DNA from: PVC group bacterium
GTDB lineage: Bacteria; Omnitrophota; Gorgyraeia; B26-G9
NCBI GenBank assembly: GCA_024231215.1
Contig: JAAEQR010000072.1
Location: 257,210-321,209 of the forward strand
Length of the DNA stretch: 64,000 bases
Direction of reading: 5' to 3'
The translations under genes were made by a program, and so were the position numbers. A model generated the notes under the pieces. It had not been told where the DNA came from. It ran no database searches and was given only the letters and a program-made list of their open reading frames with translations. Shown in pieces: positions 39,701 to 60,272 of the stretch (position 1 is the first letter of the stretch; every line of letters starts with the position of its first letter).

Positions 39701-42700
39701 AAGCGGTGTGGAAAAACCGGAGAAATTGTGGAGATTTCTAAAGGTGAATATAACAAGCAGAGACAGCAATGGGGGGATCAGACCCAGGTATATCATCGAT
39801 TTGTTGCCGAAGGAGATTCTAATAATATTATTGAACGCAAACAGACAAAAATTAGTGGTATTTATGGATATACAATGGATACGTTTGTGGATGATCTGTT
39901 AGAAGGGAGTCCTTCCAGTATACGCTATATCCCAGCATATAATGATGATTCTTATGAGATTGGCTTAAATGCCTATCTTAAAGATGATACAGGTAAACAT
40001 GGTATTAAGTTCCATGATTATACTGATTATATTTGGAATAATAATTTCTTGGCTCGGACCGTAGATTCAGGGACATCTTTTGTTCATACTGCGGTAATGG
40101 ATGGGGAAGGTCGTAACGTTAGAGAAATTAGAGGGAATTATAAGGTTAAGGTTGTGAATAAAACAGGGTTTGAAGCGGGAACTAATCGACCGCTTAAATC
40201 TGCAATGTTTGTGAATGAGAAAGAATGGATGAGTTTTGAATATGGCAAGACTGATCCAAAAACTAAAGTGCAGAGAGTAACAGTTGTTCCAGTTGATTGG
40301 GGATTGGTACATACAGAGGATTATCGTATTGGCGATATTTTTGCCCGGCCGTTTAATATTAAATATGAAGATGGTTCTGAAGTGTTTGTGGATAAATGGG
40401 TGGAGTATCGTAATATTCCGTTGCTTGCTCATACGGTTAATCGTTATGGACGTACAGTTCAGAGATCTGAATTAGATTCATTCCCTGTAGAAGAAGGGTT
40501 AAATCTTAGCAAAAATAGCATATATGAAGTTTCTTTATTTGACAAAGAAACTGTCCAGAGTGCTAAGGCTTTTATTATGGGGACTCCGGTACCGTATTAT
40601 CTCCTTGATGATTTTGATAAAACATATATGGATATGCGTAAATCTTATGAATCGCCATATTATACAATTGATACGCGTGGTGATTTTGGTAGGACGATGA
40701 TGTTAGATAACCAAGATTTGATAGAGAATGTTGTAAGTATATATAAAAGTGAATTGGATTTATATAAAGGAGAGAATAGTAGTGATCTTGTTAATGGGGA
40801 AGATGTTTTGCAGGTGCTCAAGGTTGATTTTGACGGCAAAAAGAGAGATAAAGCAACCCAGACAATCTATGACCGGCTGGCGAATCCGTTAGAGGAGAAA
40901 ACCGGACATTTTGTGGTTAAGAAAACAGCCCGGGTATATAATGCAGAGAATATTTTAAATGATGAAATTGATGAGACAGCTTTTTCACAACGGGCGGTAA
41001 TAGCTTATAATCAGGGATTATTACAAAAAGATGTGGAAGGTGATTATAATATATACAGGTTTGTTCCGGTTAGAACAGATGTTAAATTTAAAAAAGCTGT
41101 GGATTATAAAGTGAATTATGATCAGAAGTATCGGGATGTTATTACCGGTCGTATGGTATATCGTAGTATTCGTTCTTCAGATTTGTCCTTTACTCCGAGA
41201 AGTTTGGAGGGTGGGGATAGCGGGGATCCTTTTATTGCTTGGTTGCCTGAGTTTACTACCGAAAACTATATTTATCACAGTAGCAATCCGTGGATGCGGA
41301 ATATCCATAATCCGTATTGGGTTTCTCAGGATGTAGTTTCTTATCGGATAAACTATGGGGTAGAATTTGATGGAAATGGAGTTGTTCTTAATATTGCTAA
41401 ATCGTCATCTGATTTTTTACCGATTACGGTTAAAGGTCGGCAAATGTTTATAGGAGACATTCCTTGGCAGATGAGAGGTGTAACTTTCTTTAGTACAGTT
41501 AAAGGGAAGCAACTGGATACAGAGGAATATCTTACGAAGGCTGATATCTGGATAGAAGATATAGAGAAGATGGCGTTGGCTGGTATAAATACAGTAAGAA
41601 CTTCAAAGCCTGTGAGTGGAAATATTCTTAATGCTTTTTCTGTATATGGGATTAAAGTTATTGTTGGATTAAGAGAAGCTGAATACGAAGAGTATGTAGA
41701 GGAATTTAAAGGACATGCGTCGATATTAACATGGGATATTATAGATGAGGAAGATTATCCTGAGGATAGTGATCAGAGATATCGGAAGTTACAGCAAATA
41801 GCTGAGCATATACATGAGTTGGATCCGGACCACCCGGTAAGTACAGTACATGATGGTTTGTTAGAGAAAAAAGATTTGGATATAGCCTCGGCTATTGATA
41901 TCTGGGGAATCAATACCTCTCTATGGGATAATGGTGGACAGATTTTCTCAGAATGGGAAAGAATGTCTGATAAACCAATGTACTTATCTAGAATAAGAAT
42001 GGATTCATTAGATAATAGGAGACTTAAACCCGACCAAGGAGGACAGGCGGTTGCGGTATATAATCTTTGGAAACGTATAGATGAGAATAGCAGTATATAT
42101 TCCGCAGATAACGTGTGTTTAGGGGTAACATATCATTCTTGGGTGGATGAATTATGGCGTACAGGAGCCCCTGATCAACAGAATATTGGGGGAGAAGTGG
42201 ATAATGTTCCGTATGATGGGTTTACTAATATCGAATATACAGGTTGGAATAAATCCGATGGGACAACAAAAGATGTGTATAAACTTATGCAGATGGTTTG
42301 GACACATATTCCCATGGGGACTGCTTTAGCGGATAAGTCTATCCCAGGAGTAAAGATCAATACTAAACCAACAAGAGAAACTGTATATAAAGATAAAATA
42401 TGGTATGACCATAAAGGAAATAATAGTCTTGAAATTGTAGACGGTCTTTCTCCTCAAGGTTCTCCTATGGCGAGATATTCTTATACTTTGCCTCAGTCTT
42501 TACCGTCTTTGGAAAATAGTGTTACTTTTGTTCCGGTTGAAGAAGATAGGGAATTTACAGCTGTAAATTTAGCCATTAGTCCGGATTATTTGCAAGGAAA
42601 TGATTTCCTCTATTTTTACACCAAAGACATAGAAAATCCGTCTGCAGAAGTTGTTTTTATAGATGCTTTTGGGAAACAGCAAGTAACTGTTTCTGAAAAT

Positions 42701-45700
42701 GAAAAACACATGAAATTATGGGTTCCAATCTCACAAAATCAGGTGTTTGTGCCGGGTATGGATAAAATGAAAGAAGTTGTTTCTGTAGATTCTTCACGCT
42801 GGGATATTAAAAATAAACGACTTTGGGTAGTATCATTGGCACGATTAAAAGAAGTCTCTGAACTTAATGATGTACATAAACTCCAGGTAAGAATTGATGG
42901 AAAAACAAATAAAGATTCTCGCATTTCTACAATTGGAGTGTTGGGTAATAGTGAAAGAGACATGGATAAAGTGGAGACAACTGAAGTAACCAGGCTTAGC
43001 TGGGGGGATGGATCAACCATGATTGCTGCATTAAAAGATACCGAGGGCAGACCGCGGAGTATAGTGCAGTTATTAGGTAGAAAACATGAATATGAGACTT
43101 TGGCAACTTCTGCGAAGAAATGGAATGCTTTGTCCTTATTTACAAATAAAATGCAGGATCCGGAAGTCACAATATTCAGTGATCCTCAGAAGAAGGATTT
43201 TTCTGTTTCTCTTTGGAGTCCATCTGGTTATAAGTTATCAGGTATTCTTTTAAGTTTAAAAGATAAAAATAACGGTTCAATTGTAATTAAACTGGCGGCT
43301 CGTAACGCGTTTGAAACCCAGATGGTTATGGATTTTGAGCTTGGGTATGTACAGGGAGATATTCCGGCAAATATAGCGTATGGAACAGATGATTTCGTAG
43401 TTTTCCCAATTGGTAAGAATCCTGTGATTGCTAATATGAATTCTAATATTTTTAATAAAATTAATGACTTTTTACAGCAAAGGGTGGATCCGACTTTTAA
43501 ATTAACAGAAGAACAGAAAGAATTAATTTGGCATTATTCGCAAGCTGAAAATATGGTTAAGATTGTTGAACAGTTTCCGCTTGCGGATGAAGCTGTTTCC
43601 GGCAATGTTCCTTTTTATGCATATCCGGAATTTGAGAATGAGATTAAATCTAGAGTGCAACCAGAAAAGGCTTCAGATATAATTAACAGTGAGAGTATTA
43701 AAAATATTTTGTTACGATATGTTTCAGATCTTGAGGAAAGACTACAAGCAGGGCAGACTCCGTTGGTGCCGATTAATATTGGGACCTATTCAAAAGATAA
43801 TATAAACACCGAAGATTATGTTTCTACGGTCGATGAATTGGAATCTATAGTGCCGATGCTTGTGGACTTGGGGATGATTAAAGAAGCTGAAATGATCGTA
43901 AGGTTTTATATTGAAGAAGCGACTCAAAAAGGATTATATCCAGTATCTGATTATTACAATAGACAGACAGGAGAAAAAGAATATTTTGACGCATATTCTG
44001 CTAATGTGCTTCCTTCTTCGGTGACAGCCAAATCACAGATTGCTTTGGTCAATTCCTGTTTAATGATGATGCAGGTGACGGGCGATGCTTATTATTATAA
44101 GGCTGCGGAAAATACATTTGATCGTTTATTAGAGTTTAATCCGCAGATAAAAAATGCTATGCATAAGAAGGATGATGTTTCACTTTGGGAAAAAATCACA
44201 CAGTCTCAATTGGTGGAATTGTCTTTAGACTATCTCAACCGCAATGTAACTGTGGGTGGATTAACTGATCTAGAACCGAATTTAGATATGGATTATATTG
44301 GCACAAGGAAAAAACTTCCGGTACAGCCAGATTATTATCCGACCCAGACTAATAATAAAGCGTATCTTTTGCTATCTAAAATAAAAGATATGGCCGAAGA
44401 ACTACCAGATATGGGTGATTCGTTTTTACAAAAAGCTGTCTGGTTTGAATCATTACAAATAACATGGCTGAAAGATAATTTATTTAATCGTTTAGAAGAT
44501 AGTTCTCAAAAAGGCCTGATTCCAGATGGGATTTTTGACCTCTATAGTTCGCAGGGAGTTGAAGGGGCGGATGAAAATTATATTAAAACGCTGTGTCCTA
44601 ATCCGGTAGCTAATTTTGCTTCTTCAAAATCAACTTTAGAAGCAGCGTTGCAGGCTGGATACATTACTTCTGAGGAATTCAAAGTTATAGTAGATAATCT
44701 AGCTAAATATTTTCATAAAGAATTAGAGCTAGACGGCAAAAAGGTTAATGGTCTTGATTCTATAACACGTTTTATAGATAGGCCGGATTTAATCTTCCTG
44801 GATAATATGGTTGATTTACTAAATCTTGTTTCTAAAACTGGGGATAAAGAGGTCTGGGATCGAATTAGCCAGACTATAGATACATATCCTCTTAAAGATA
44901 AAATGTTGCCGACGGTTATTGCTGAGACTGACTTTTCTAAAGGTAGTGTTGATTCAGGCATTGGTTTTGATTCTGGATATGGGATATCCGGTAGACAATT
45001 CCGGGTTTTACCTTCGGCAGAAGATGATAGAAGCCCGCCTTCTTTGAAAGCTAGTATTGGTTATAGCTTTGCCAGATTACGGGATGGATACTCGCCTTAT
45101 TCTTCTAAGCTTGAAAAAGAAGAGAGGTTTGAATCTGAACGTAAAAAAGCGATAGAATATATCATTTCCGGTAGGGGAAATGAGGGGGATTTCAAACTTT
45201 TACTTAGTCCGAAAAAGCGCTATGGAGGATTATTTGGTATTGGCAGTACGCTTGCAGCTACGCTTATTGTTAAACTGGTGCTGACAATTATTGCTACTGT
45301 GATGTCGAGAAAACAGAGGCGAATAAACAGATTAATGAAAGACAGTAAATATAAAGGCAGTACTCCTGTGTATAAGCGGAAGTTGATCTATACAATGTTA
45401 GAACGGTATCGTAAACAGGTACTTAAGGTAGTAGAAGGAGCTCATTTTAAAGGGGTTAGCGTGGGAAAAGATAAAATTCTGAGTGCTACAGAGATAAGTA
45501 CATCTTTTAAGGCTACAGATGCTCATATTGAGGGAGCTTTTTCCAACTATCTATTTGTATTGAGAACGCTTGCAATGGAATGGGTAAGAAGAAAAAAAGA
45601 TTTAGGAGAAGAAGATGATGCTTTGCTAGTATCAGACCCATTTTTAGATAGTGTGGATGAATTAACTCTAATGCTGGGATTATTTATAAGGCAAGAGATT

Positions 45701-48700
45701 GTAAAAGGAGAAGATATTCAAATTCAAGGGAAGATAGAGGCTTATTTACAGCATTATGTGGTGCAGCTTAGACATATTTTGCATAAAAGAGATATTGCTA
45801 GCAAAGAAGGTAATCCAATGGATATGGATAAGCTGGATTCACAGTTTCAGAGGATTATAGCTGATTTAGGTATTCCTAATTTTGGAGATAACCCAGTAGC
45901 TTCTTCACAGGTAGTACCGTATATTGACCGGGAGCAAAGGCGGTATGTAATTAATTATTATGCTATTGCTTCCCGGGACATTGCTCAGGCGCGTCGAAAC
46001 TTGGCTAAGACTAGACAAGATTTTACTAAACAGAAAAAAATTCTTAAAGAAAAAGAAGCAACGGTACTTTCATCGCAAATGGCCCCAGAAAAAAAAGAAC
46101 AAATGCTGGCTGAGCAAAGATCAGTTGTTGTGAGTGCAGAGATAAAATTAGATCGAGAGAGAATAGAGTATGAAAAATTCAAGGAAAGATGGCGTTTAGA
46201 GGAAGCTAATAAGCTAGGAAAAGAACGGCAGGAACGTTTTGAAGAAAATTTTTTACCGCGGTTTGAACAATTTATAAAAGAAGAAAAACTAACTTCGATT
46301 GCTCCGGCAATTATGGAGCCGGCAATGTTCTTAGACCGTTTTGTTATGCTTTCTTTAACATCAATAATATCCGCTGTAACTTTTATCAGTTATACTGCTC
46401 CTTTAGTGGCTTTGAAAATTTCATTTTTAAATGCGTTTGGAGCATGGAGTCTACCGTTTTTAATTAGTATTGCTGGAGTTTTGGTTTTCAACACAGTGCG
46501 TGAATACCTGGCTCTTTTAAATCATGATCGGATTGACAATACGCCTCGGGGGAAGGTACTGAGCTACGCAACGGGTATTTTCTTATTAATAAGTGGGATA
46601 GTGATTGGTCAGATGATGCAGGTAACCTATTTAGATATGGCATTGATAAAGTGGCTTGGAGTATTTGTAATCATTGCTGAGAGTTTGAATTTGATAATGC
46701 CTCAGCTTTTTATGCCTGTTTATGCTTGGGTAAAAGACTCAGTTTTATTAATTTTTAAGGTTCCGTATGCTTTATTTCAGGCGATTTTTAATCCACAATA
46801 TTATATTAAAATATGGAAGGAAAATAAATTATTCAAAGAATTTTTCCCTACGGTTAATAAACTTAACCCAGCCGAGAGATCATCACATTCTTTACTAGGA
46901 ATAAGTGCGTATTATCATTTTAAACCTGGACTTGTGCTCGCAGATATGGCGATATTTGATAAGAAATCTTATGAGGGGCTTAGCAATAGCAAAAAGGCGG
47001 TTAAATTTGCAGCTAATTTGGTGCAAACAATTGGATCTATGCGGAATATATTTGTATATATTCTTTACTATGTCGCGATATTTTTTGTAGCTGCATATTT
47101 CGGGCAAGATCATAATATCTATGGCTGGTTTGTTACTCGTTTTGAAGCTGGTGAGATTCATAAAGTATTTTTTGGATTGACAAGCTATGTTATTTTATCA
47201 CAATATCTTGCTTCTTTTGCTATATTCATGTTTTTGACTGTAAAAATGTCAATAATCAAGAGTCTTGTGGAAGGGTTTAGATATAATGTCTGGTATCGTT
47301 TTACCAAATACACATTAACCGACGAAGTAAATGACAAAGTGGAAAATGCGAAGAAAGTGTTAAAGAATGACGGAGAGCCTAAATACTTCGCGATTATGAA
47401 TTTTGGAGGACAGTCAATGGTACCACCTTCTTTTAAGCTTGCTCGAAAGTGGAAAAATGTAGAGAAAGGCAAAAAGGCAGCAATACAGAATCTTTTAGAC
47501 CATATAGATATTCACTTGCAGGCAAAGACGCAGGGGTTAATGACACTATTAAAAACATACAATCTATTAGGTGATAGTCCAAGAAGGACAAAAGAATGCG
47601 TGTATGAAGTTTTAGATGCGTTAATCTCCCGAGAGATGGAGGAAAAAACTACACTTTTTGATCTAATCCAGTTAAATAATACTCAGTTACCGGAAGATTT
47701 GCAGGTCACGGCTAGTACAGACAAAAAGGATAAGCATTGCGCTGATAATGTGGCGATAGGATATTATTTGCGGCTCTATCTTACTGAGATGACCGGTGCT
47801 TCCGGAAATATGTCTTGTGCTGCGAATTTAGTTGCCAAGGCAATTAAAGTTAATGAACTGGGTCTATCTAAATATGCTCGCTTTATTATTTCACATAATA
47901 AATATAAATATGCTCCGGGGACTGATAATCCAACTAATCTTTTTGACCAGCATAGTGGTGAAGAGATTGTGGAAATAGCACAGAGAGACAAGTTGAAAAA
48001 ATTGATCTCTATTATTTCCGGAGGGGCATATGTTGCGGGTGAAAAGGAAGCTGGGGAAGTGCATTATACCTGGACTCATTTCGGGATGAAGTCAGCGGGT
48101 ATGAGCAGTATATTTCTCTCCAAGATAGTATCCGATACTAAATGGTTTTTTGTTGAAGACAGAGATGCTACAATTCCGGATACGGCTAGATGGTTATCTG
48201 ACGGAGCAACGATGATTGGCGATGAAAATATAGCGATAATGATTGCTAATCGCGATACCAGCTGGCATTATCATCCTACTTCCGAAGCTTCATTTTTAGT
48301 CGAACAGGGATTTTGTTCTACAGGAGCTAAAAAGACCTCTACTGGTTGGGGGAACCTTAAAAGGGAAACTTGGGGAGAAGCTCTAACGATGATATCATAT
48401 CCGGATTCTCCGGTTATGCCTTTAACCGGAAGAACGGGAAAGGTGCAGAAGCAGGAAGGAATAGGTTTTTGGAATAGGCTTTATAATAATCTATTTGGAT
48501 TGATTGGATTTATTCCCAATGCTATGGGGCAAAGCGAAGACCGCTGGGCAGCACACGAGACAGCTCATACCCAAATTGCGATGGGAGGTAATCCTAGGTA
48601 TGTTATGAGTAAGGGGATTTGGAATAAACTTCGAGAGACGAGTTTTGCTACACCTTGGACGCAAGCGCCGGTACGTTGGTCAGCTGGAAGACTTCAGGGA

Positions 48701-50941
48701 CTTAATGATTATATTATGCAAACAATTAATGAATTGGGTGGGGAAGCTATTTGGAATCGAGAGTATGATGTAAACGAAGGACGTTTTTATATCATTATGC
48801 CATTAGCTATGCTTACTGTATTTAGCGGGTGGCTTATGATTTTGTTTGACTTGACTCCGTTTGTGGGAATTAATGCTATTTTTTGGAGTATTGGAATACT
48901 TGCAAATCAGATACTTACTTTTCATGGACTTTTAGCTTATTTAAGAAAAACAGGATACGTTGCGCTAAGTGCAGCAGTGTTTGGAATTATCGGGATGGGG
49001 CTAGGATTTATGTCCGGTGGCATGCTGGGAGCAGTAATTTGGGGAATTGTTGGTCAGTTGTACGGAGGTTTTATTGTTGGTTTTAATGCTTGGATGTCTA
49101 AACGTATTCGAGATGCGGTTCTTTTTGCTTCGCGGGTGAACATTGAGACTTTTGCCCAGATAAAAGGACATATAGGAATTAATTTCGAATTTAAGCTTTC
49201 GGGTAAAGGTGGGGATAGTCCAGCTGTCCCGTGGATTGGTTTGTCGATATTCTATAATCAAAAAGCCAAAAAATTACAATTTATATCCATATGGAATCAA
49301 GATGAAAATAAAAAGGAAATAGATATAACTAGTTTGAATTTTATAGTATTTGTTGGTGCAGTTATTTCTGTGATTACTTTTTTAGTTATTCCGAAGCTTT
49401 CATTGTTAAACGTGATAATGACAATCCTTGGATTGATTTTTATTATGGGTATACCTATGGGACCGTTTTTAATGAAGCGAAAAATTGGAGAACATAGTCC
49501 CATAGGTGAGTTTATTGGAAAGAATATAGTGGGTTTTGGTGGCGGAGCTTTATTTCTTACGGCAATTTCTCTACTGGGACGGCATGGGGTGATGAGTGGA
49601 TTTGACATGTTGGTTTCCGGGGCGGGATGGCTATTGATGATTGCGGTGAATGTAATTCCAATAATACGAATAATTACTCAGTGGCAGTTTAGGGATGTTC
49701 CGGAAGGATCCATAAGTATTAATACATTTAGAGATCCTGAAACTGTAAAGAAGCTACACAAGAAGAAGGTCGATGAAATTGCTCGTAAAAAAGCTAAGAA
49801 AAATGCTAAGTTTAAGGTCAAAGAAATTACTCATAGACAAGCTAAGAAAAAGGCTAGGTTTTTGGAATGGCTATATCTTAGCAGGGATGCTAGAGTTACT
49901 TCTGAAACAGCGCGTGGTTTCTGGTGGGCGATGATTACTTTAAGTTGGTTTATACTTGTTCCTAGAGATGCTGTGATTACTGCGTCTTTTGGTAAATATA
50001 TGTCAGCTTTTCCCATTGCATTAGTAGTTAGTATTGTTACAAAGGGAATAATATATATAATTATAAGTGTATGGTTAGGTAAATTTGTTGAGGTTATCCA
50101 GACTCGTTGGTGGATTGCGAAATCTAATGCTTTGCGTCGGACAATACTGCCGTTAATTGAACAAGCTGTAAATTCAGGTCGTTACACGTATACTTTGAAT
50201 GAAATATTGACGCGTTTTCCTGCTATAGATAAAGGGATAAGTAATCGATCCTTCCGTCAGGTCAAAACGGCATATAGAGACATTCATAGGATGTTGAACG
50301 AATATGATAATCGTAATATACTTGATAATTCAGAGATAATTAAAATAAATGCTCTCGAGTTTTATAAAGTAGATACTAAGACAATTGTTGCGTCTCCTAA
50401 GGTGATGTCTGCATTAATTGGGATTACAGCGTTAATGGGATTAACTTATATAAATTATCAATTTGGATTTGAGGGAGTGGTTATCGGCATTCAGGCTTTT
50501 TCTAGAACGTTAAATACATTCGTGGCTCAACTGCCTTTCCAAGAGGGATTTGTTGCGCAGAATATCCATTGGCTTATAACTGCAGGGAGCGCGCTGTTAG
50601 GTCTTATCATTATAAGGTTAAGGAGAAGGTTCTTAAAGGCTGTCAGGGGTAGAAGCAAAGAGGATCTATTGGGAGGGGTGATGCCATATTTAATAAAGGG
50701 AAGGAACAAAGCTCCTAAAAAATCTTCACCTAAAAATGCTATAGTATCAATTCTTGAGGCATTTTCATCTGCTGCTCGGAAGAGGCAGGCAATAGTTAAG
50801 CCAACAGTTACTTCTTCAGATGAAAAATGGATAGAAGGAGAAGAATCAAAGGAACGTGGTTCTCCTCTTTCGGGGTTAATTAAATTAGATGATAGAGAAG
50901 AAGCAGTTCAGGAAAGTTTGTTGATTGAGGCTGCGATTTAA
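18749..50941 (+). CDS. Giant multidomain protein (10,730 aa): N-terminal extension + hydrophobic '[10 protein letters not shown]' motif, SecA-like ATPase module, ~10-helix membrane domain, ~1,700-aa coiled-coil-like tract, long beta-rich body containing a degenerate clan GH-A glycosidase-like domain, and C-terminal polytopic membrane bundles
   Basis: A single frame is open for 32,193 nt in AT-rich DNA, where stops should occur every ~20 codons, so this reflects selection. Domain calls come from motifs read in the translation (see sub-features). The start is uncertain: ATG 18749 has a weak SD, and in-frame TTG 18935 gives [22 protein letters not shown].., which fits the family N-terminus. Confidence 0.85.
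   Translation: [10730 protein letters not shown]
19430..21700 (+). other. SecA-like module within the giant protein (NBD1, PPXD-like insert, NBD2, start of helical scaffold)
   Basis: Blocks matching E. coli SecA from memory: WDVQ..[8 protein letters not shown] vs FDVQ..MRTGEGKT (Walker A, nt 19652-19675); NLVERDAM vs [26 protein letters not shown] vs [41 protein letters not shown] vs [21 protein letters not shown] (nt ~20042); VNLTPNG vs [42 protein letters not shown] vs [49 protein letters not shown] vs ATNMAGRGTDI (nt ~21206); [26 protein letters not shown] vs [28 protein letters not shown]. Confidence 0.8.
22200..23470 (+). other. Polytopic membrane domain (~10 predicted TM helices) immediately after the SecA-like module
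   Basis: Successive ~20-aa hydrophobic stretches: [216 protein letters not shown]. Confidence 0.6.
24150..29450 (+). other. K/E/Q/L-rich, heptad-like alpha-helical (coiled-coil-prone) tract of ~1,700 aa with short interruptions
   Basis: Composition and periodicity of the translation (e.g. [14 protein letters not shown].., [33 protein letters not shown].., [35 protein letters not shown]..); recurring LDPNNT/VDPNNT motifs around nt 28100-28560. Confidence 0.5.
41360..42030 (+). other. Degenerate clan GH-A (TIM-barrel glycosidase)-like domain inside the giant protein, paralogous to the downstream GH genes but lacking the nucleophile motif
   Basis: Aligns block-by-block with ORF 54692 and ORF 59001: MRGVTFFS vs [19 protein letters not shown] vs MGANVFRIYHH / [20 protein letters not shown] vs [21 protein letters not shown] vs VLMWVFGNENNY (acid/base Glu retained as DE); [14 protein letters not shown] vs [23 protein letters not shown] vs [18 protein letters not shown] replaces KPVLVTEYG (nucleophile TEYG lost). 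Confidence 0.55.
46300..50650 (+). other. C-terminal region of the giant protein with multiple TM-helix bundles separated by soluble segments and a highly basic K-rich linker (~49740-49870)
   Basis: Hydrophobic runs: [267 protein letters not shown]. Basic linker [38 protein letters not shown]. Confidence 0.55.
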
Positions 50942-51335: not shown

Positions 51336-51572
51336 GTAAATTAAAAAATCCCATCGAATGATGCAACCTATTCATTTTAAATCAGTTATGTCTATAAAAA
51401 AAATGCATTTTTCTTTGCAATATCTTAAAGGTTATGGTATAATTAATAAATTTTGGGTAACTTATTAAAAGCGTTAAACAAAGTTCATAAAAACATATCA
51501 TTTAATATAATAGTATAGAAACAAGGTGTTTGACATATTTGATGGTAAACAATTGTTGAGAGGTTTTATACT

Positions 51573-53045
51573 TTGAAAGTAAAATTATTTGTATCTAAAA
51601 ATTTTAATGTAATAATATTTATGCTTATTTTGCTGTGTTTTTCTCATATGAATACATCAAAGTTGCAGTCGGGACTGTTTTTGTCTGTCATTGAAAAGGA
51701 TAAATCAATAGAGCATTCTAGTTTGAATTATTTTCCTTCGAATAATTTATTAAGTAAAGAAAGTTTTCTTGCTCCAGTTTTACAGATGCAAAAAGATGAA
51801 TTTAGGATAAATTTTTATAAAGATCTTTTTGTCGAGCAATACATTAAGAACTGGAGAGTAATAGAAGGTCTTCAAAGCAGGGAAGGTCGTAGAATCCAAC
51901 GAAAGGGTGGTTTGGAGAAGGTCAAAAAGTGGAATTTGTCATTGGGGTCTAAATGGAAAATTCCGGGGTTAGAAGAACAACTGAAACTAGAGATGCCATG
52001 GATACAGAGGCTGTGGTATCTTCCCGGGCTTAAGAAAGCGCTTGCGGACAAACACAGGGATATTAATCATAAACATCTTGAATTTCTGTTTGATTATTAT
52101 CCAGAAGATGCTATGGAGTGTGTGCGTATTGCAATTACAGATGATGGATTTTTGCTTTCTCCAAATTTATTGAAAGCTTTGAATGAAATTGGACCAAAAG
52201 CAAAAAGTGTAAGTGATCTTTTATATGGGGTTCTGCTTCATCGCTTTTTTGGTTTCGCGGATATTAAAAAAGTCAGAGAAATTATTAAAACAATTAATAT
52301 AGAAGACTTGTCGGCATTAGACTCTGTTCAAGCAGCAGATATGAGAGTAGTCGTAGAAACCTTAACTGCAATTGATTCTGAGCATCTTGCAGATTTGAGA
52401 CTCATTGCGATGGATAAAATAGTTGGGCTTATTCAGAAAATAAAACAAGCAGAAGATTGGCTGTCTGAGGCACGCAGATTTGAAACTAAATTATATGAGG
52501 AAGAAGAAGCTGAAAGTAACGTTCCGGTAAGAGAAATAAATCATCAGTTGATCTATATCGATGAGGAAATAAGAAAACAAACTGTATATGAAACCATATA
52601 TTCGGAAGGAACTCAGGATCCAGAATCCAAGTCGATTCCCTTAGACACAACGTTTGAGGCGGAGAAATTGCGTAAATGGGAGAAGGAGATACGAGAGGAT
52701 AAATCCTGGAAAGAAGTAGAAAGAATAAATAAAAAGGTTAAGGCTCAGGTTTTTGCTTTGGTAAAAAAGATTAGCGATGGTAAATATGAGATAAAGGGAG
52801 ATTTGAAAAGTGCTATAAGGCGTCTTCATGACAAAGCATCAAAGATAATGAATGCTTTTATTTTTACAGAAATAGATATGGTTCCGGCAGCTACATTTAT
52901 CCCGGATGAAAGTGAATCTAGAAGACTAGAATGTCTTGAAGTAATTGAAGGATTGTTCAGGTATTATGCTTTTGATACTAGTAGTACAAAATTTTCAGTT
53001 ACTGTTCCTTGGGCAGGTCTAAATAAGATTGAGCAATCAATTTAA
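51573..53045 (+). CDS. Hypothetical protein with N-terminal hydrophobic segment (490 aa)
   Basis: TTG start 11 nt after GAGAGG; N-terminus KVKLFVSKNFNVIIFMLILLCFSHMNTS. No recognised motifs; the start codon is uncertain (alternative ATG at 51621). Confidence 0.5.
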   Translation: MKVKLFVSKNFNVIIFMLILLCFSHMNTSKLQSGLFLSVIEKDKSIEHSSLNYFPSNNLLSKESFLAPVLQMQKDEFRINFYKDLFVEQYIKNWRVIEGLQSREGRRIQRKGGLEKVKKWNLSLGSKWKIPGLEEQLKLEMPWIQRLWYLPGLKKALADKHRDINHKHLEFLFDYYPEDAMECVRIAITDDGFLLSPNLLKALNEIGPKAKSVSDLLYGVLLHRFFGFADIKKVREIIKTINIEDLSALDSVQAADMRVVVETLTAIDSEHLADLRLIAMDKIVGLIQKIKQAEDWLSEARRFETKLYEEEEAESNVPVREINHQLIYIDEEIRKQTVYETIYSEGTQDPESKSIPLDTTFEAEKLRKWEKEIREDKSWKEVERINKKVKAQVFALVKKISDGKYEIKGDLKSAIRRLHDKASKIMNAFIFTEIDMVPAATFIPDESESRRLECLEVIEGLFRYYAFDTSSTKFSVTVPWAGLNKIEQSI

Positions 53046-53132
53046 GCAATAAAGGGACAATTTTTAGTGGTTGGATTTTTGCTTGTTCTCGCCCCATTAT
53101 TTGTTAAAACTTACCTATTATTAGAGTGTATC

Positions 53133-53161
53133 TTGACATCTATTATGTTTTATGATATAAA
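53133..53161 (+). promoter_or_regulatory. sigma70-like promoter: TTGACA - 17 nt - (TGa)TATAAA
   Basis: ttgaca at 53133-53138 and tataaa at 53156-53161 with TG upstream; same TTGACA..TTTATGATATA architecture as the giant-gene promoter. Confidence 0.5.
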
Positions 53162-53216
53162 AGAAAGCTCATATATGAATCTTACAAAAACCTATATATA
53201 GGAAGGAGAGGACTAA

Positions 53217-54677
53217 ATGAGTGTTAAACACTATGCTACTGCCCCGGAAGATCGCATTGCTATTCTTCAAAAAGTTGCTTATGGTTTGGGAATGTTATGT
53301 AATAATTTAATCCCTGCGGCACTTGGGTGTATGGCAGTTGTCCTTAATTTAGGCTTAGGTATGAATCCTGCCTTAATAGGCTATATAATGTCTTTTCCTC
53401 GGTTGGTCGATGCTTTTACTGATCCTGTCATGGGTTATGTTTCTGATAATACAAAATCACGTTTTGGCCGGCGCAGGCCATATATCTTTTTTGGAGCAAT
53501 TCTTTCAGGAGTCATATTTGCTTTAATTTGGCAGCTTGGTGCTGGTCATAGTGAAATGTTCTATTTCTGGTTTTTCCTGATTGGATGTATTCTTTTATTT
53601 GTTGGTACTACTGTTTTTGCTACACCTTTTATTGCCTTTGGCTATGAAATGACTCCGGATTATCATGAGAGAACAAGAGTTATGGCTTGGGCTAATTGGT
53701 TTGGACAGATTCCTTGGCTGTTGTGCCCGTGGTTCTGGTGGATAATGGCTAATAAGAATTTCTTTGAGACTTCGGTTGACGGAGCCAGAGCTATAGCTCT
53801 AGGTGTGGGGGCAACAGTTGTTATCCTTGGGATAATGCCGGCTATTTTCTGTAAAGAACGCTATAAAAATACTGCTGGAACTGAAACTAAATCAGTTAAG
53901 GGCGCATTGGATAAAATTAAAGAATTTGGAACTGGATTTGTTAATACAATTAAAGTTCCGCCTTTCCTTAAGTTGTGTACAGCCACCTTCTTTCTTTTTA
54001 ATGGATTTATGCTTGTTTCTGGATTAGGGATGTATGTATTAATCTATTATTTATTTGGTGGAGATACGGTAATGGGAGGTAAGTATAGTGGACTTTTTGG
54101 CACTACCTCTGCTCTTTCAACAATATTTATTGTTATTCCGCTTGTAACAAGGCTTTCAACGAAATTAGGTAAAAGAAAAGCATTTATTATATCAACATCT
54201 ATCTCTATCCTTGGATTTCTTATTAAATGGTGGTGTTTTAACCCAGAGTATGCGCATTTAATAGTATTTAAAGGGATATCGTTAATTCCATTATTACCGG
54301 CTGTTTTGATTTCCTTTGGGATTGGTGGGTTATTTACAACTGTCGGCGCAATGATGGCGGATACTTGTGATTTAGATGAATTAAGTAGTGGCAGTAGAAG
54401 AGAAGGGGTTTTTGGGGCTATTTATTGGTGGACAGTTAAATTAGGAATGTCTGTAGCTTTTGCATTGTCCGGGCATGTTCTTAATGCTACGGGGTTTAAT
54501 GTTGAATTAGGTACTGCTCAGGCAGCAAAAACACTATTAATGCTTAGAGTTTTTGATATTATAATTCCAATTATAACGTCAATAATAGCAATACTCGCAA
54601 TAGTTTTTTATAAAATTACTGAAGAAAGAGCGCATGAAATCCGGGCTGAACTTGAAAAACGGCGCGGAAAAAATTAG
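53217..54677 (+). CDS. MFS-type glycoside-pentoside-hexuronide (GPH):cation symporter family sugar transporter (MelB/GusB-like)
   Basis: GGAAGGAGAGG RBS. N-terminal signature YGLG..DAFTDPVMGYVSDNTKSRFGRRRPYIFFGAI (GPH-family D-x-x-T-D-P-x-x-G-x-x-S-D-x-T-x-x-R-x-G-R-R-R-P motif) and ~12 hydrophobic helices. Confidence 0.75.
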   Translation: MSVKHYATAPEDRIAILQKVAYGLGMLCNNLIPAALGCMAVVLNLGLGMNPALIGYIMSFPRLVDAFTDPVMGYVSDNTKSRFGRRRPYIFFGAILSGVIFALIWQLGAGHSEMFYFWFFLIGCILLFVGTTVFATPFIAFGYEMTPDYHERTRVMAWANWFGQIPWLLCPWFWWIMANKNFFETSVDGARAIALGVGATVVILGIMPAIFCKERYKNTAGTETKSVKGALDKIKEFGTGFVNTIKVPPFLKLCTATFFLFNGFMLVSGLGMYVLIYYLFGGDTVMGGKYSGLFGTTSALSTIFIVIPLVTRLSTKLGKRKAFIISTSISILGFLIKWWCFNPEYAHLIVFKGISLIPLLPAVLISFGIGGLFTTVGAMMADTCDLDELSSGSRREGVFGAIYWWTVKLGMSVAFALSGHVLNATGFNVELGTAQAAKTLLMLRVFDIIIPIITSIIAILAIVFYKITEERAHEIRAELEKRRGKN

Positions 54678-54691
54678 TTTGTTATAAAAGT

Positions 54692-56587
54692 ATGAGAACA
54701 TTCAAAATTATAGTTATCTTTTATTTGATGATATTTCTTGTAGCTGGGTATTGTTTTGCTGCGCCTGAGCCTACTTTTAAACTATATGATCAGGGTACAG
54801 AAGATATTGTTAATTATGAAGAGTATGGTGAATTTAAAAATATAGGTAAAGAAGGATATAAGTACAAACCTAAGAAACGAAAAGAATTATCTGCAGCAGT
54901 AGGTGAAGGGATATACCCGAATACAAAAAGCCTGTCTAAAGATCCTCAGTTCAAAAAATATAAAAAGAATAAAAAGCTTCTGGGCAGCCAATGGGCGTTT
55001 GTAAATAGTGCTGATTATCAGGCAAATTTTTATCGCTGGGCAATGGCAGCAGAAAGTCCAGGGGTGAAATTATTTTATACAGCTCAAGCTTTAGAGAATG
55101 CTGATCATATAAAGCACGCGATTAAAGCTTACTATGCATTGGTTGTGAATTTCCCAAAAGAGGTTGGTGTTACCTATTGGGGGACACCATGGTATGTAGG
55201 CCCGGCTTCCTTAGATAGAATCCTATATCTGACCCAAGAATATCCGGAATTAGGAATAAAACTTGTTGATGCTAAAATTAGCGTAGAAAACCGCTATGAT
55301 GATAATCGGCGTAACGATGTGTTCATGGTTAATCCGGGAAAATTAATACAGTGCGATCCTAGTGAAGTGATAGGTAAACCTGCTGATTTAAAGGTTCTTG
55401 ATGTCATTGAACGCAAAGATTTTGGTCAGGTAAGTTTAGTTAAATATGGCAATGGCCATTGGCAAATGCTTGTTGACGGTGAGCCGTTTATGATAAAAGG
55501 TGTTGCCTATCAACCAAGCATGATCGGTCAAAGCCCGGATATCGGGACTTTAGAAGACTGGTCGCATATGGATAAGAACAAGAACGCTAAAATTGACAGT
55601 CCGTATGATGCTTGGGTTGATAAAAATAAAAACAATATTCAAGACGATAATGAGCCATCAATCGGTGATTTTCAGTTGTTGAAAGATATGGGCGCAAATG
55701 TGTTCAGAATTTATCATCATGATTTTGTCGGGAATAAAAAGATATTCCAGGATTTATATAAAAATTACGGTATTCGCATTATAATCGGAGATTTTTTAGG
55801 AATGTATGCCGTTGGTTCCAAGGCTTCCTGGGATCCCGGAACCAATTATTCTGATCCGCAGCAGCAGAGGAATATGCTTGATTCGGTAATGAAAATGGTT
55901 AATGATTACAAGGACGAACCTTGTGTATTAATGTGGGTTTTTGGAAATGAAAATAATTACGGCACAGCGAATAATTCAGGAGAAGAACCTGAAGCATACT
56001 ATCATTTTGTTAATGAGGTAGCAAAGAAAATAAAAGAAGTTGATCCCCATCATCCGGTAGCAATTTGTAATGGAGATATACATTTTCTTGATATTTTTGC
56101 CCAGCAGTGTCCGGATGTAGATATATTTGGGGTTAATTCATATCGGGGCAAACATGGATTTGGTTATTATAATTTTTGGCTTCCGATTAAAGAAATTGCC
56201 GATAAACCTGTACTGGTTACCGAATATGGGTGTCCTGCTTACGGCCATAAGTACAGTCGTGATTACGCAGAGAATTTTCAGGCTGAATATCTTGTGAATA
56301 ATTGGATGGATATGGTTGATAATAGTGCCGGTTCCGGATCGGGCAATGCCATTGGTGGGGCTTTGTTTGAATATCTGGATGAATGGTGGAAAACAGGAGC
56401 ACCTCCCGGATATCCGGACATCATTCAAGATGTAGTGCCTAATGTGGGAGGGCCTTATGTTGATGGCTGGTATTATGAGGAATGGTTTGGGATAGTTAGC
56501 CAGGGAGACGGTACAGATTCTCCGTTTATGCGTCAATTAAGAAAAGCATATTTTGAGTTACAGAAAATTTGGAAAGAAGAAGAATGA
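54692..56587 (+). CDS. Secreted clan GH-A glycoside hydrolase (GH2/GH5-like TIM barrel)
   Basis: Signal peptide MRTFKIIVIFYLMIFLVAGYCFA. Catalytic-type motifs VLMWVFGNENNY (acid/base NE(P)-like) and KPVLVTEYGCPAY (TEYG nucleophile-like), plus GANVFRIYHH and EWWKTG. The stop overlaps the next gene's ATG (ATGA). Confidence 0.65.
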   Translation: MRTFKIIVIFYLMIFLVAGYCFAAPEPTFKLYDQGTEDIVNYEEYGEFKNIGKEGYKYKPKKRKELSAAVGEGIYPNTKSLSKDPQFKKYKKNKKLLGSQWAFVNSADYQANFYRWAMAAESPGVKLFYTAQALENADHIKHAIKAYYALVVNFPKEVGVTYWGTPWYVGPASLDRILYLTQEYPELGIKLVDAKISVENRYDDNRRNDVFMVNPGKLIQCDPSEVIGKPADLKVLDVIERKDFGQVSLVKYGNGHWQMLVDGEPFMIKGVAYQPSMIGQSPDIGTLEDWSHMDKNKNAKIDSPYDAWVDKNKNNIQDDNEPSIGDFQLLKDMGANVFRIYHHDFVGNKKIFQDLYKNYGIRIIIGDFLGMYAVGSKASWDPGTNYSDPQQQRNMLDSVMKMVNDYKDEPCVLMWVFGNENNYGTANNSGEEPEAYYHFVNEVAKKIKEVDPHHPVAICNGDIHFLDIFAQQCPDVDIFGVNSYRGKHGFGYYNFWLPIKEIADKPVLVTEYGCPAYGHKYSRDYAENFQAEYLVNNWMDMVDNSAGSGSGNAIGGALFEYLDEWWKTGAPPGYPDIIQDVVPNVGGPYVDGWYYEEWFGIVSQGDGTDSPFMRQLRKAYFELQKIWKEEE

Positions 56588-57313: not shown

Positions 57314-57343
57314 GTGCTTATTAGAGAAAGGAGGAGCAAGGTG

Positions 57344-57991
57344 ATGAAAAAATTAAGTTGGATTGTAGTAGTAATGATTTTGGGATTATTCTTGAGCTTG
57401 AATGTTCAAGCGCAGGATATGGCTGAGGATTATGAAGAAGAGGAATTAGTTGGTAGACCGGCAAAGTTTGTAGATGGGGTTTTTGGGGTTTATTATGATC
57501 GGGGTAATCGTCAGAATCATTATATCCCATCGGGCTGGATGGGTGATCATGGTGATATCAAGATGAATGAGAATTGTAAAGAGAACCCGCATAGCGGCAA
57601 GAGCTGTATAAAGTTTACCTATACCGCAGAAGGCAAGCAGGGGGCGAATTGGTGTGGAGTAGCTTGGCAGAACCCGGCAAATAACTGGGGTGAAAAAAAT
57701 GGCGGAAAAGACTTGACTGGAGCAACAAAGCTGACTTTCTGGGCCCGAGGGGAACAGGGAAATGAACGCATACTGGAGTTTAAATTCGGCGGTATCGGAG
57801 GAACTTATGCGGATTCTGATTCTATGGGTATTGGACCAATTGATGTTACTACAGAGTGGCAGCAATATACTATAGACTTAACGGATACTGACTTATCTTA
57901 TATTATTGGAGGCTTCTGTTGGTCGACAAATGCGGATGCTAATCCTGATGGATGTGTTTTTTATCTTGATGATATCCAATATGAAAAATAA
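57344..57991 (+). CDS. Secreted beta-sandwich/CBM-like protein, tandem paralogue B
   Basis: AAGGAGG 9 nt before ATG 57344 (MKKLSWIVVVMILGLFLSLNVQAQD). ~75% identical to paralogue C: KSCIKFTYT..GKQGANWCGV.WQNP.NNWGEK.GG, KLTFWARGE, GIGP.D.TTEWQQYTIDLTD, C..YLDDIQYE. Confidence 0.75.
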   Translation: MKKLSWIVVVMILGLFLSLNVQAQDMAEDYEEEELVGRPAKFVDGVFGVYYDRGNRQNHYIPSGWMGDHGDIKMNENCKENPHSGKSCIKFTYTAEGKQGANWCGVAWQNPANNWGEKNGGKDLTGATKLTFWARGEQGNERILEFKFGGIGGTYADSDSMGIGPIDVTTEWQQYTIDLTDTDLSYIIGGFCWSTNADANPDGCVFYLDDIQYEK

Positions 57992-58183: not shown

Positions 58184-58215
58184 ATTACTTAGCTTTACGT
58201 TGTTCGCTAAGTAAT
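58184..58215 (+). promoter_or_regulatory. Conserved 5'-UTR stem-loop upstream of CBM-like paralogue C
   Basis: attacttagc / gctaagtaat, a perfect 10-bp stem with 12-nt loop tttacgttgttc, ~15 nt upstream of the AAGGAGG RBS. Preceded by a second hairpin tgccaa..ttggca (58151-58168). Same stem/loop geometry as 57284-57313 with covarying sequence. Confidence 0.5.
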
Positions 58216-58243
58216 GCGTTTATTAAAGAAAGGAGGCAAAGGA

Positions 58244-58879
58244 ATGCAAAAGATTAAAATTTTACTAGTGATGCTTATTGCTAGTTTGATACTGAGTGTT
58301 AATGTACAGGCTCAGGATGATAATTACGAGGAATTAATTGGTAGGCCGGGAAAGTTTGTAGACGGGGTATTCGGAGTATACTTTGACCGGGGTAATCGTC
58401 AGAATCATTTTTGTCCTTCAGGCTGGATGGGCGATTTTGGCGATGTAAAGATGAATGAAAAATGGACAGATAACCCGCATAGCGGCAAGAGCTGTATAAA
58501 GTTTACTTATACGGGAAAAGGCAAGCAGGGTGCAAATTGGTGTGGCGTGTTCTGGCAGAATCCTCCAAATAACTGGGGTGAAAAAAAGGGTGGTTTCGAC
58601 TTGAGCGAAGCGACAAAACTTACTTTCTGGGCCAGAGGAGAAACAGGCAAAGAACGTATTCAGGAATTTAAAATGGGTGGTATTGGCGGGACTTATTCGG
58701 ATTCTGATTCGGCTGGAATCGGTCCGGTTGATCTGACTACAGAGTGGCAGCAATATACGATTGATCTTACTGATGTTGATCTTACATATGTTAACGGTGG
58801 TTTTTGCTGGTCAACTAATATTGATGCTAATCCGGAAGGATGTGTGTTATACTTGGATGATATTCAATACGAACAGTAA
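58244..58879 (+). CDS. Secreted beta-sandwich/CBM-like protein, tandem paralogue C
   Basis: AAGGAGG before ATG 58244 (MQKIKILLVMLIASLILSVNVQAQD); see paralogue B. Confidence 0.75.
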   Translation: MQKIKILLVMLIASLILSVNVQAQDDNYEELIGRPGKFVDGVFGVYFDRGNRQNHFCPSGWMGDFGDVKMNEKWTDNPHSGKSCIKFTYTGKGKQGANWCGVFWQNPPNNWGEKKGGFDLSEATKLTFWARGETGKERIQEFKMGGIGGTYSDSDSAGIGPVDLTTEWQQYTIDLTDVDLTYVNGGFCWSTNIDANPEGCVLYLDDIQYEQ

Positions 58880-59000: not shown

Positions 59001-60272
59001 ATGAAAAGACGTACAATCGCTATATTTTTAATTTTAATTTTCGGCTTTAATTTTGAACTAAAAGCGGAAACGGATAAGATTGTTATTAAGAAGTTAAAAA
59101 ACGGACATTATCAGATGCTGGTGAATGAAAAACCGTATGTGGTAAAAGGTGTCTGTTATGCTCCGATACCTATAGGTAAAAGTCATTTGACTAATTTTAT
59201 GTGCGATCCAAACAAACCTTGGGTTGTAGATGGAAAAATCATGCAGGAAATGGGTATTAATACGATCAGATTATACCATGCTGGAGATGAACCAAAATTT
59301 TGCAAAGCAATGATTGAGGATTTATATAAGCTTTATGGGATACGTACAATTTTAGGTCATAATTTGGGGTTTTGGGATTATCCACCGCCTAATTATGGAG
59401 ATGAGGAATTTATTAAGGAGATAACCGAAGAAACCCTCAAAATGATTGAATATTTTAAAGATACCCAGGGAATTTTATTCTGGAACTTAGGGAATGAGAA
59501 TAATTATAGCTTTGACGGCCGGATAAATCCTTGGAGTACTCCGGAGATTGATGAATTGAAAAGTCATCGGGATAAAACAAATGCCCGGGCAAAGATTTAT
59601 TATTCTTTTGTAAATGAGGTAGCAAAAAAGATAAAAGAAATCGATCCTAATCATCCTGTATCCTTAGGTAATGGGGAGACAGTAGGTCTTAAAATTGCTG
59701 CGGGAAATTGTCCGGATGTTGATTTGTTAGGATGCATAGTATATCGTGGAAAGGTATTTGGTACTTTTTTCAAAGAAGTTAAACGTAAATTTGATAAACC
59801 GGTGGTATTAACTGAATATGGTTGTGACGCCTATAATGCAGTAAAACAAAAAGAAGATCAGAGGAATCAGGCGAAGTTTTTAAGAAGTCAATGGTTGGAT
59901 TTAGAGAAAAACTTTGCGAATGGAGAAGGCATAGGTAACTGTTTGGGCGGTGCTATATTCGAATGGACCGATGAGTGGTGGAAAACATCTGAATCTGACC
60001 GAGATAGTTGGCTGGTGCATGATATAAGCGCTAGCTGGGGTATGGGAGCGTATGATTTTGATGCTAAGGCGGGAAAGAATATGAACGAGGAATGGTTTGG
60101 TCTTCTGGCTATATCTGAGGAATTAGATGAAAGTGGTAATAATAAAAGGATTCCGCGCAAAGCATATTATGTCTTAAGAGCATTGTGGAATGATAAAGTA
60201 GCTCGAGAAAAAGAAACAGAAAAAAAGAAAAAGCCTAAGGGTGCTAAAGTTATAAAGAAGAATACGAAATAA
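59001..60272 (+). CDS. Secreted clan GH-A glycoside hydrolase (second copy, shorter)
   Basis: Signal peptide MKRRTIAIFLILIFGFNFELKA. Motifs GINTIRLYHAGDEP, ILFWNLGNENNY, YYSFVNEVAKKIKEIDPNHPVS, KPVVLTEYGCDAY, EWTDEWWKT, collinear with ORF 54692. Confidence 0.65.
   Translation: MKRRTIAIFLILIFGFNFELKAETDKIVIKKLKNGHYQMLVNEKPYVVKGVCYAPIPIGKSHLTNFMCDPNKPWVVDGKIMQEMGINTIRLYHAGDEPKFCKAMIEDLYKLYGIRTILGHNLGFWDYPPPNYGDEEFIKEITEETLKMIEYFKDTQGILFWNLGNENNYSFDGRINPWSTPEIDELKSHRDKTNARAKIYYSFVNEVAKKIKEIDPNHPVSLGNGETVGLKIAAGNCPDVDLLGCIVYRGKVFGTFFKEVKRKFDKPVVLTEYGCDAYNAVKQKEDQRNQAKFLRSQWLDLEKNFANGEGIGNCLGGAIFEWTDEWWKTSESDRDSWLVHDISASWGMGAYDFDAKAGKNMNEEWFGLLAISEELDESGNNKRIPRKAYYVLRALWNDKVAREKETEKKKKPKGAKVIKKNTK

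Follow-up and report, generated by a model that had tools for sequence, protein, structure and literature searches.

A probable pseudo-glycosidase domain inherited within a lineage of giant membrane proteins in an Omnitrophota-like bacterium

Whether a glycosidase-fold domain carried by a giant membrane protein still cleaves glycans, and whether it came from the glycosidase genes lying beside it, are the questions raised by a 64,000-nucleotide stretch (hereafter the window) of contig JAAEQR010000072.1 (assembly GCA_024231215.1, positions 257,210 to 321,209 of the forward strand). The domain belongs to clan GH-A of the glycoside hydrolases (GH) and lies in a 32-kb open reading frame (ORF), here called the giant; two genes for secreted clan GH-A enzymes, gh1 and gh2, follow downstream. 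An initial annotation had described the domain as a catalytically degenerate copy of these two neighbours, and had suggested its capture from or by them and its reuse as a lectin-like module. From the analysis given below, the domain is most probably a pseudo-glycosidase that was inherited vertically and has been kept in a functional giant membrane protein, and hydrolysis would fall to the secreted enzymes. The elements concerned are as follows.

18749..50941, + strand: giant ORF, 32,193 nt, 10,730 amino acids (aa), with an N-terminal hydrophobic segment.
41405..42307, + strand: candidate clan GH-A (beta/alpha)8 pseudo-glycosidase domain, giant aa 7553-7853, delimited by family hidden Markov model (HMM), Pfam, AlphaFold2 (AF2) and Foldseek.
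54692..56587, + strand: gh1, secreted GH-A enzyme, 631 aa, with GNENNY (55943-55960) and TEYGC (56219-56233) intact.
59001..60272, + strand: gh2, secreted GH-A enzyme, 423 aa, with GNENNY (59490-59507) and TEYGC (59811-59825) intact.

Comparison of giant aa 7401-8000 with gh2 by BLASTP gave an E value of 6e-22 (26% identity over 300 columns, giant 7565-7810 against 38-334), and comparison with gh1 an E value of 4e-13 (giant 7650-7851 against 403-627), indicating that the three domains are homologous, as first proposed, and that the similarity is not spurious. An HMM built from 45 stand-alone relatives matched the giant once, at aa 7553-7853 (E 3e-61); the domain is thus in the region originally assigned to it, aa ~7540-7760, but runs about 90 residues further. 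No second, intact copy of the domain was found when the family HMM was run over the giant with the HMMER filters off. Pfam Glyco_hydro_2_C matched giant aa 7401-8000 at 27.1 bits, against a cut-off of 21, and scored 21.2 bits in a 3,530-aa slice. Both neighbours match this family as well, and they marginally exceed the gathering cut-off of Glyco_hydro_72. The N-terminal domains of GH2 (Glyco_hydro_2_N and Glyco_hydro_2) had no Pfam match in the giant, gh1 or gh2, and NCBIfam GH2 equivalogs scored 18-46 bits, far under their cut-offs of 544-2000.

Structure modelling, which the initial annotation had proposed, agreed with this assignment. The AF2 model of the giant's domain has eight beta-alpha units (predicted local distance difference test, pLDDT, 82.4; predicted template modelling score, pTM, 0.86), and its top Foldseek matches were GH2 beta-glucuronidase and GH158 barrels (E 3e-14 to 7e-13). 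By sequence the nearest solved family is GH158, which was matched by gh2 at E 1.6e-8, by the family profile at E 1.9e-14 (profile positions 65-201), and by the giant's domain alone only partially, at E 4e-5 over 65 residues. The model places E7667 three residues past beta4, S7724 two residues past beta6, and R7748 in the last turn of beta7 (model residues 190-195). These predicted sites are those of the clan GH-A acid/base, the Tyr that bonds the nucleophile, and the nucleophile itself, respectively. The NE and SE motifs of the family profile align with the NE and E of the GH2 structure 6ncw, alignment of gh2 to GH158 (9oro, 6pal) anchored the catalytic residues in the same way, and the acid/base Glu of the giant's domain aligns with the GNE of GH158 and GH2.

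At these anchored positions the giant's domain has lost the canonical catalytic residues, with three sites affected.

41741..41755, + strand: loop after beta4, I7665-D7666-E7667-E-D7669 in place of the family G-N-E-x-N, from alignments.
41918..41920, + strand: S7724 in place of the Tyr after beta6, which is 98% conserved (NVYRWD to NTSLWD).
41987..41998, + strand: end of beta7, S7747-R7748-I-R7750 where the family has S-E-A/T-G, with Arg replacing the nucleophile Glu, which is 99% conserved.

The acid/base Glu, E7667, is kept (97% conserved in the family), while the Asn that precedes it (98% conserved) has become D7666, so that the giant reads WDIIDEEDY where the neighbours read WNLGNENNY and WVFGNENNY; the earlier description of this position as DE rather than NE was correct. 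Replacement of the TEYG nucleophile motif by SRIR was likewise confirmed by alignment: the giant has KPMYLSRIRMDS where the neighbours, which keep both NE and TEYG, have KPVVLTEYGCDA and KPVLVTEYGCPA (neighbour consensus KPV(V/L)(L/V)TEYGC). Measured against clan GH-A as a whole, the barrel and the acid/base Glu are present, and the N of N-E, the nucleophile Glu and the beta6 Tyr are absent. In clan GH-A, the Tyr after beta6 hydrogen-bonds the nucleophile. In the GH158 enzyme BuGH158, the mutants N136A, E137A and E220A are each inactive (PMC7157763). SRIR and IDE are true substitutions: neither of the alternative reading frames recovers the motifs, and both are interrupted by stops, which ruled out an origin by frameshift or sequencing error. 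The nearest alternative carboxylate, D7752, is conserved in the family and coexists with the nucleophile in active members. A domain altered in this way would be unable to cleave glycans by the canonical retaining mechanism.

The changes are not spread evenly over the domain. Among 40 positions conserved at 85% or more in the other 191 full-length copies, the giant deviates at 12, compared to one in the median member and three in its sister copy in P0049 (described below), making it the third most deviant of 192 copies at conserved positions. The 12 changes are Y to S after beta2, D to N, A to S, the three in G-N-E-x-N to I-D-E-x-D, G to D after beta5, Y to S after beta6, E to R and G to R at beta7, K to R after beta8, and E to I. 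With the catalytic face defined as the C-terminal strand ends and the loops directly after them in the AF2 secondary structure, nine of the 12 fall on that face, affecting 9/16 conserved catalytic-face positions against 3/24 elsewhere (Fisher p = 0.005). Several GH-A sugar-contact residues are kept (R7617, H7701, E7667, W7719, N7722, D7800, W7803), and the loops past beta3 and beta4 are shorter than in the stand-alone relatives.

To place this loss within the family, an exhaustive HMMER search of 1.84 billion representative proteins was made, yielding 812 relatives at E ≤1e-3, and about 200 domain copies (all those in 196 retrieved proteins together with the window's three) were aligned to the family HMM. 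Nearly all of these copies retain both G-N-E and the beta7 Glu, and this holds as well for copies within proteins of 1,500-5,800 aa. Only six deviate in the catalytic motifs: the giant's, both copies in P0165, the third in P0153, and those in P0055 and P0145. In P0165 (1,875 aa) the two copies span aa 322-644 and 948-1283, one with GNGLN and SGFN and the other with GSDLN and the nucleophile kept. In P0153 it is the third of three tandem copies (aa 911-1229) that is degenerate, with SNRQG and LAYG, and in P0055 and P0145 the acid/base is changed to Asn or Asp. Judged from these sequences, pseudo-copies seem to arise mainly in multi-domain carriers.

The second question, that of origin, was addressed with a three-domain alignment extended to a phylogeny, as the initial annotation had suggested; the homology held, and the neighbours proved not to be the closest relatives. 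The Kimura distance of the giant's domain was 1.05-1.2 to a subfamily with the motif SE(A/T)G, 1.95 to gh2 and 2.27 to gh1, placing gh2 at rank 181 and gh1 at rank 189 among 192 copies. In a neighbour-joining tree of 70 domain copies with 100 bootstraps, the giant's domain and that of P0049 are sisters in 86/100 replicates, inside a clade of modules from large proteins, and gh1 and gh2 fall on the opposite side of the tree; in all 100 replicates, any clade that unites them with the giant's domain holds at least 30 of the 70 taxa. P0049 (MCM8813688.1), a partial protein of 3,877 aa, takes up the whole of an 11.6-kb contig in a Candidatus Omnitrophota metagenome-assembled genome (MAG). It is collinear with giant aa 4560-8242 (3,683 residues) at ~30% identity, and its domain, at the matching position, is catalytically intact, with GNEENY and SETGADS. 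Most other large carriers of the domain are annotated as partial Omnitrophota proteins. These results indicate that the giant's domain was inherited vertically within the giant-protein lineage. Since the sister domain sits collinearly in P0049 and the other large carriers are mostly Omnitrophota, the module would be an old component of this lineage, in which catalysis was probably lost after the split from the lineage of P0049.

Given the loss of catalytic residues, the divergence of the whole domain was compared with that of its intact sister. Mean distance to the 45 stand-alone enzymes was 1.26 for the giant's domain and 1.29 for that of P0049, and mean distance to twelve other embedded modules was 1.28 and 1.24, respectively. 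Identity between the giant and P0049 is 36.9% within the domain, compared to 31.8% over the remaining 3,380 aligned residues, and 21/24 conserved positions off the catalytic face are kept. By these measures the overall divergence of the giant's domain has not accelerated. The 32-kb ORF runs without a break, and the motifs of the SecA-like ATPase region of the giant, given further below, are intact. The pattern fits a fold under constraint while catalysis is not, and it fits a binding role or a purely structural role alike. Retention of the ancestral sugar-binding site is doubtful because 9/16 of the conserved catalytic-face positions have changed.

These observations suggest the following history. 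A GH-A module recurs in the giant proteins of Omnitrophota and is normally catalytically intact. In the lineage of the window it would have been inherited vertically and then have lost the machinery for retaining double displacement, through replacement of the nucleophile Glu by Arg, of the Asn before the acid/base by Asp, of the beta6 Tyr by Ser, and of nine more family-conserved residues, mostly on the catalytic face. The barrel appears to have been kept, with the module persisting as a non-catalytic part of the giant. The giant is presumably produced, and the stretch between its two predicted transmembrane clusters (aa 1205-1565 and aa 8831-10440) is probably extracytoplasmic, because the stand-alone relatives of the domain carry signal or lipoprotein leaders. 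At present the module may use a remodelled pocket to bind a glycan or some other ligand, or it may be a plain structural module; the two GH-A enzymes that are secreted and intact, and that belong to a separate conserved cassette, would provide hydrolysis at the locus in trans. If the pseudo-glycosidase account is right, ligand binding and a structural relic have about the same likelihood. Several points weigh against this history. The variant is a singleton, with no relative above ~40% identity to the giant's domain in any collection searched (5.8 billion proteins by word index, the 1.84 billion representatives by HMMER, genome contigs and metagenome contigs). Of two scans of metagenome contigs, one was empty and the other returned only stand-alone marine enzymes at 31-36% identity. 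The confidence of the AF2 model leans on an alignment made of intact enzymes, the domain could be cytoplasmic, and the heavy changes on the catalytic face speak against the ancestral sugar-binding site having simply been retained.

Alternative explanations were weighed against the pseudo-glycosidase account. The proposal that a copy recently passed between the adjacent glycosidase genes and the giant, in either direction, and then degenerated draws on real homology and on a distance of only ~12 kb. It is extremely improbable given that the two neighbours are among the most distant copies by rank, never group closely with the giant's domain in the bootstraps, and are displaced as sister by an intact orthologous domain at a collinear position in P0049. 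The cassette that includes the neighbours also has its own history, occurring without an adjacent giant in the Omnitrophota locus L006 and, as a pair of transporter (MFS) and GH genes, in other phyla. The earlier suggestion of capture was accordingly abandoned. That the domain remains an enzyme by a non-canonical route, either substrate-assisted in the style of GH20 and GH84, with D7666 polarising a 2-acetamido group and E7667 as acid/base, or with a relocated nucleophile, is very unlikely, even though the retained acid/base Glu is now preceded by Asp to form a D-E pair. Prey cell-wall glycans are N-acetylated, which speaks for this possibility. Giant proteins have also been implicated in cell-wall digestion in passages of 10.1101/2023.11.21.568195. 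Against it, an Arg occupies the nucleophile position, where the acetamido oxygen must sit, the beta6 Tyr is lost, and many further pocket residues are changed, while the alternative carboxylate D7752 is, as noted, a family-conserved residue that active members carry beside their nucleophile. In substrate-assisted families a Tyr normally stabilises the oxazoline, and we know of no clan GH-A family that uses such a mechanism. The specific case of a clan GH-A barrel switched to substrate-assisted catalysis on N-acetylated prey-wall glycans (peptidoglycan, pseudomurein or chitin) is a very long shot; if true, the mechanism would be new to the clan, and an Omnitrophota giant would gain a direct wall-cutting activity.

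Two further explanations accept the loss of catalysis and differ in what the barrel now does. In the lectin-like form put forward initially, the dead barrel keeps its cleft, binds the glycan of the neighbouring enzymes and anchors the giant to a polysaccharide, a cell wall or a prey surface. The retained fold and sugar-contact residues, the unaccelerated divergence and the secretion leaders of the stand-alone relatives are in keeping with this, as is the proposal, in passages of 10.1101/2023.11.21.568195, that Omnitrophota giants are adhesins and cell-wall degraders. GH pseudoenzymes with roles of their own are also known, such as those of family GH28 in beetles (PMC6549527). We hold this form only tentatively, since the catalytic-face changes include both Tyr and three Gly/Asn residues and insert two Arg at the -1 site. 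Ancestral specificity is unlikely to have been kept because of this remodelling, and a substrate shared with the neighbours is not implied because the giant's domain and gh1/gh2 are in different subfamilies. The locus, moreover, already encodes three candidate binding proteins resembling carbohydrate-binding modules (CBM). The remaining explanation is a neutral relic, a module that decays since catalysis became dispensable and that is kept, as a spacer at most, because partial deletion of a 32-kb ORF is rare. The rank of third most degenerate among 192 copies, the shortened loops past beta3 and beta4, the singleton status of the variant in all databases searched, and the fast evolution of giants (27-32% identity between giants against 72-82% for the cassette) are as a relic would have them. 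The stretch, however, contains no stops or frameshifts, keeps 21 of its 24 non-catalytic conserved positions, has diverged from its intact sister no more than the flanks have, and stands as far from outgroups as that sister does, and a relic in this neutral sense appears rather doubtful as well.

Several known systems resemble parts of what is seen here. The best relatives of the giant's domain outside giants (30-38% identity, E 1e-28 to 1e-49) are stand-alone secreted or lipoprotein enzymes of ~335 aa consisting of the GH2 TIM barrel only (P0001-P0046), from Bacteroidota, Kiritimatiellota (Pontiellaceae) and Sumerlaeota, for example Gaetbulibacter aestuarii and Marinifilum breve. They have in common with it the barrel and the motifs KPMYLS, DPxHPVST and DEWWK; they differ from it in having only one domain, in retaining WELGNEYNYH and SEAGADS, and in the greater length of the loops past beta3 and beta4. 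To our knowledge their substrate is uncharacterised. Other Omnitrophota giants (P0049, P0050, P0054, P0063, P0066, P0071 and others) carry the same module in very large, mostly partial proteins, and their copies keep GNE and the nucleophile Glu, whereas the window's copy does not. Among solved structures, GH158 (BuGH158, 6PAL; GH158(Pro), 9ORO) and the GH2 beta-glucuronidase barrels of clan GH-A are closest by profile and fold. Their beta4 acid/base and beta7 nucleophile positions align with the family at an identity of only 15-19%, their catalytic residues are missing from the giant's copy, and the sugar-binding and Ig domains found N-terminally in GH2 were not detected.

Pseudo-glycosidases also include the GH1-like KL1 and KL2 domains of alpha-Klotho, the GH79-like heparanase-2, and the chitinase-like lectins of GH18. 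Known pseudo-glycosidases share with the giant's domain a conserved fold in which a catalytic carboxylate is replaced, and they serve non-catalytic roles in binding or regulation. They belong to other families and organisms, and most of them have kept the greater part of their sugar-binding residues, whereas most of the -1 subsite has been remodelled in the giant's domain. As for giant genes of Omnitrophota, passages of the 2023 preprint by West-Roberts et al. (10.1101/2023.11.21.568195) describe SecA domains of divergent type along with numerous transmembrane segments, and place glycosyl hydrolases and sugar importers downstream, and passages of a 2026 complete-genome preprint (10.64898/2026.06.07.730766) report that genes with a GH2 catalytic domain are the dominant glycosidase flank of giant genes, two of them standing beside a 147,155-aa protein. 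The passages searched of these two sources make no mention of a degenerate GH module. The degenerate copy of the embedded GH-A module appears to be undescribed, while glycosidase-fold pseudoenzymes as such are well known.

The finding bears on how such giants are read. Attachment to prey and digestion of prey walls have been ascribed to Omnitrophota giants mainly because of their glycosidase-like domains and their GH and sugar-import neighbours. The window's copy suggests that a module normally intact in these proteins can lose catalysis while both the module and the giant ORF stay. Domain content alone does not show that a giant is hydrolytic, because this module lost catalysis yet was kept; separate secreted enzymes nearby may do the hydrolysis. 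Intact domains of the P0049 type and the dead copy in the window offer a natural pair for experiment. In other respects the case would be an ordinary example of a pseudoenzyme, a modest but real step from enzyme to non-enzyme.

The giant itself has the features by which Omnitrophota giant proteins are recognised, namely one continuous ORF longer than 20 kb, a SecA DEAD domain of divergent sequence and more than one transmembrane segment. As with their genes, GH and sugar-import functions are encoded downstream; its 10,730 aa fall short of the set of 30,000 aa and more. A hydropathy scan found 16 hydrophobic segments. Pfam, run over all 10,730 aa, matched only the Glyco_hydro_2_C region and the following one, and none of the hallmark domains of Archaeovorin (glycosyltransferase, methyltransferase, peptidase, NUDIX, dockerin/TSP3).

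19580..21328, + strand: divergent SecA-like ATPase region, giant aa 278-860, from Pfam and motif reading.

The SecA-like region matched SecA_DEAD (E 9e-11), SecA_PP_bind (E 4e-10) and Helicase_C (E 1.5e-5), and its motifs are unbroken (Walker A MPTSAGKT, motif II FDEGD, and VSTNLVGRGVDF). A search for its homologues returned only canonical SecA, at E ~1e-5, and no orthologous giant. The giant protein was without a near-identical match in either protein collection, although a small neighbour matched P0213 (MCP4649183.1) at 100%; the 32-kb gene may have been uncalled or set aside in the deposited annotation. NCBI labels the host "PVC group bacterium", and the MFS, GH and CBM-like genes near the giant share 72-82% identity with those of Candidatus Omnitrophota MAGs. 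By this neighbour-gene identity the window would come from an Omnitrophota-like bacterium.

The window has ~37% G+C, and its GC skew is strongly positive (0.18-0.34) in each 2-kb bin. The + strand carries 16/17 ORFs of at least 150 aa, the single exception lying inside a + strand ORF. AT skew is also mostly positive across the window (1-64000), the coding strand being markedly purine-rich. Four consecutive proteins, starting at 9639, 12689 and 15118 and at the giant itself, share an N-terminal leader (positions 9639-9800, 12689-12760, 15118-15450 and 18749-19110). This leader consists of a hydrophobic stretch with a Q-[AT]-F-[LV]-[IV] core (LIQAFVLVN, LVQTFLIVN, LVQAFLVMD) followed, 15-30 residues past the core, by [YCH]L[SA]P[QT] (CLSPQ, YLSPQ, YLAPQ, HLSPT), and it may serve the giant and its upstream partners as a shared signal for sorting or processing. 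Further upstream are three paralogues (159-3746, 3945-5534 and 7818-9539), the second and third of which match each other at E 1e-71, while the N-terminus of the first matches the C-terminus of the second at E 3e-66. All three have in common an IQDxHCNYxAQxNI motif and a C-terminal GGFHT...ISY.V.TP motif, and none of them had a meaningful Pfam match.

Downstream of the giant, gh1 and gh2 lie within a sugar cassette that is separated from the giant gene by one ORF.

51573..53045, + strand: 490-aa ORF separating the cassette from the giant gene, unmatched in Pfam and NCBIfam.
53217..54677, + strand: MFS_2 sugar transporter of the glycoside-pentoside-hexuronide type (Pfam MFS_2, E 6e-55).
56569-57243, 57314-57991 and 58214-58879, + strand: three paralogous secreted proteins of ~222 aa, weakly CBM-like beta-sandwich.
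60325..62163, + strand: secreted protein with TPR and PKD domains, ending the cassette, conserved in L003 and L006.

A promoter and terminator scan of 50700-54800, directed at separate transcription units for the giant and the cassette, gave counts equal to the shuffled expectation. The two enzymes are 36% identical (E 4e-71), and both have signal-like N-terminal sequences and intact NE and TEYG motifs, in agreement with their initial description as active-looking. The transporter is 72-77% identical to proteins of Candidatus Omnitrophota MAGs. In the Omnitrophota locus L003 (JBDRPX010000003.1) the whole array of MFS, gh1, three small proteins, gh2 and TPR/PKD gene is conserved at 48-82% (70-82% for the MFS, GH and small-protein genes, 48% for TPR/PKD). 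There it is preceded by the end of a long ORF of at least 2,591 codons (L003:7-7782), which has 27% identity to the giant over ~600 residues. This would mean either that giant genes change much more rapidly than the genes beside them or that the giants of the window and of L003 are non-orthologous. In L006 the cassette occurs with no giant gene adjacent to it, and a gene of the gh1/gh2 type lies within 10 kb of an MFS homologue in 40/80 loci, from Ignavibacteria, Calditrichia, Fibrobacteres, Gammaproteobacteria and others. The cassette reads as an independent glycan-utilisation unit with an importer, two secreted GH-A enzymes and candidate binding proteins.

The AF2 model of a small protein was modest (pLDDT 65), with weak Foldseek likeness to CBM4, CBM30 and CBM29 (E 3e-5 to 1e-3). 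The family of these ~222-aa proteins has more than 2,000 members, of which the named ones are mostly from Omnitrophota; most members are ~383 aa long, apparently with two copies of the domain, and the member that is 100% identical is P0213, labelled "PVC group bacterium". The first ~245 residues of gh1 (54692-55420) have no counterpart in gh2 and no Pfam or NCBIfam match, and this N-terminal extension is conserved in the Omnitrophota orthologues at L002, L003, L004 and L006, which are 73-82% identical to gh1 over the full length.

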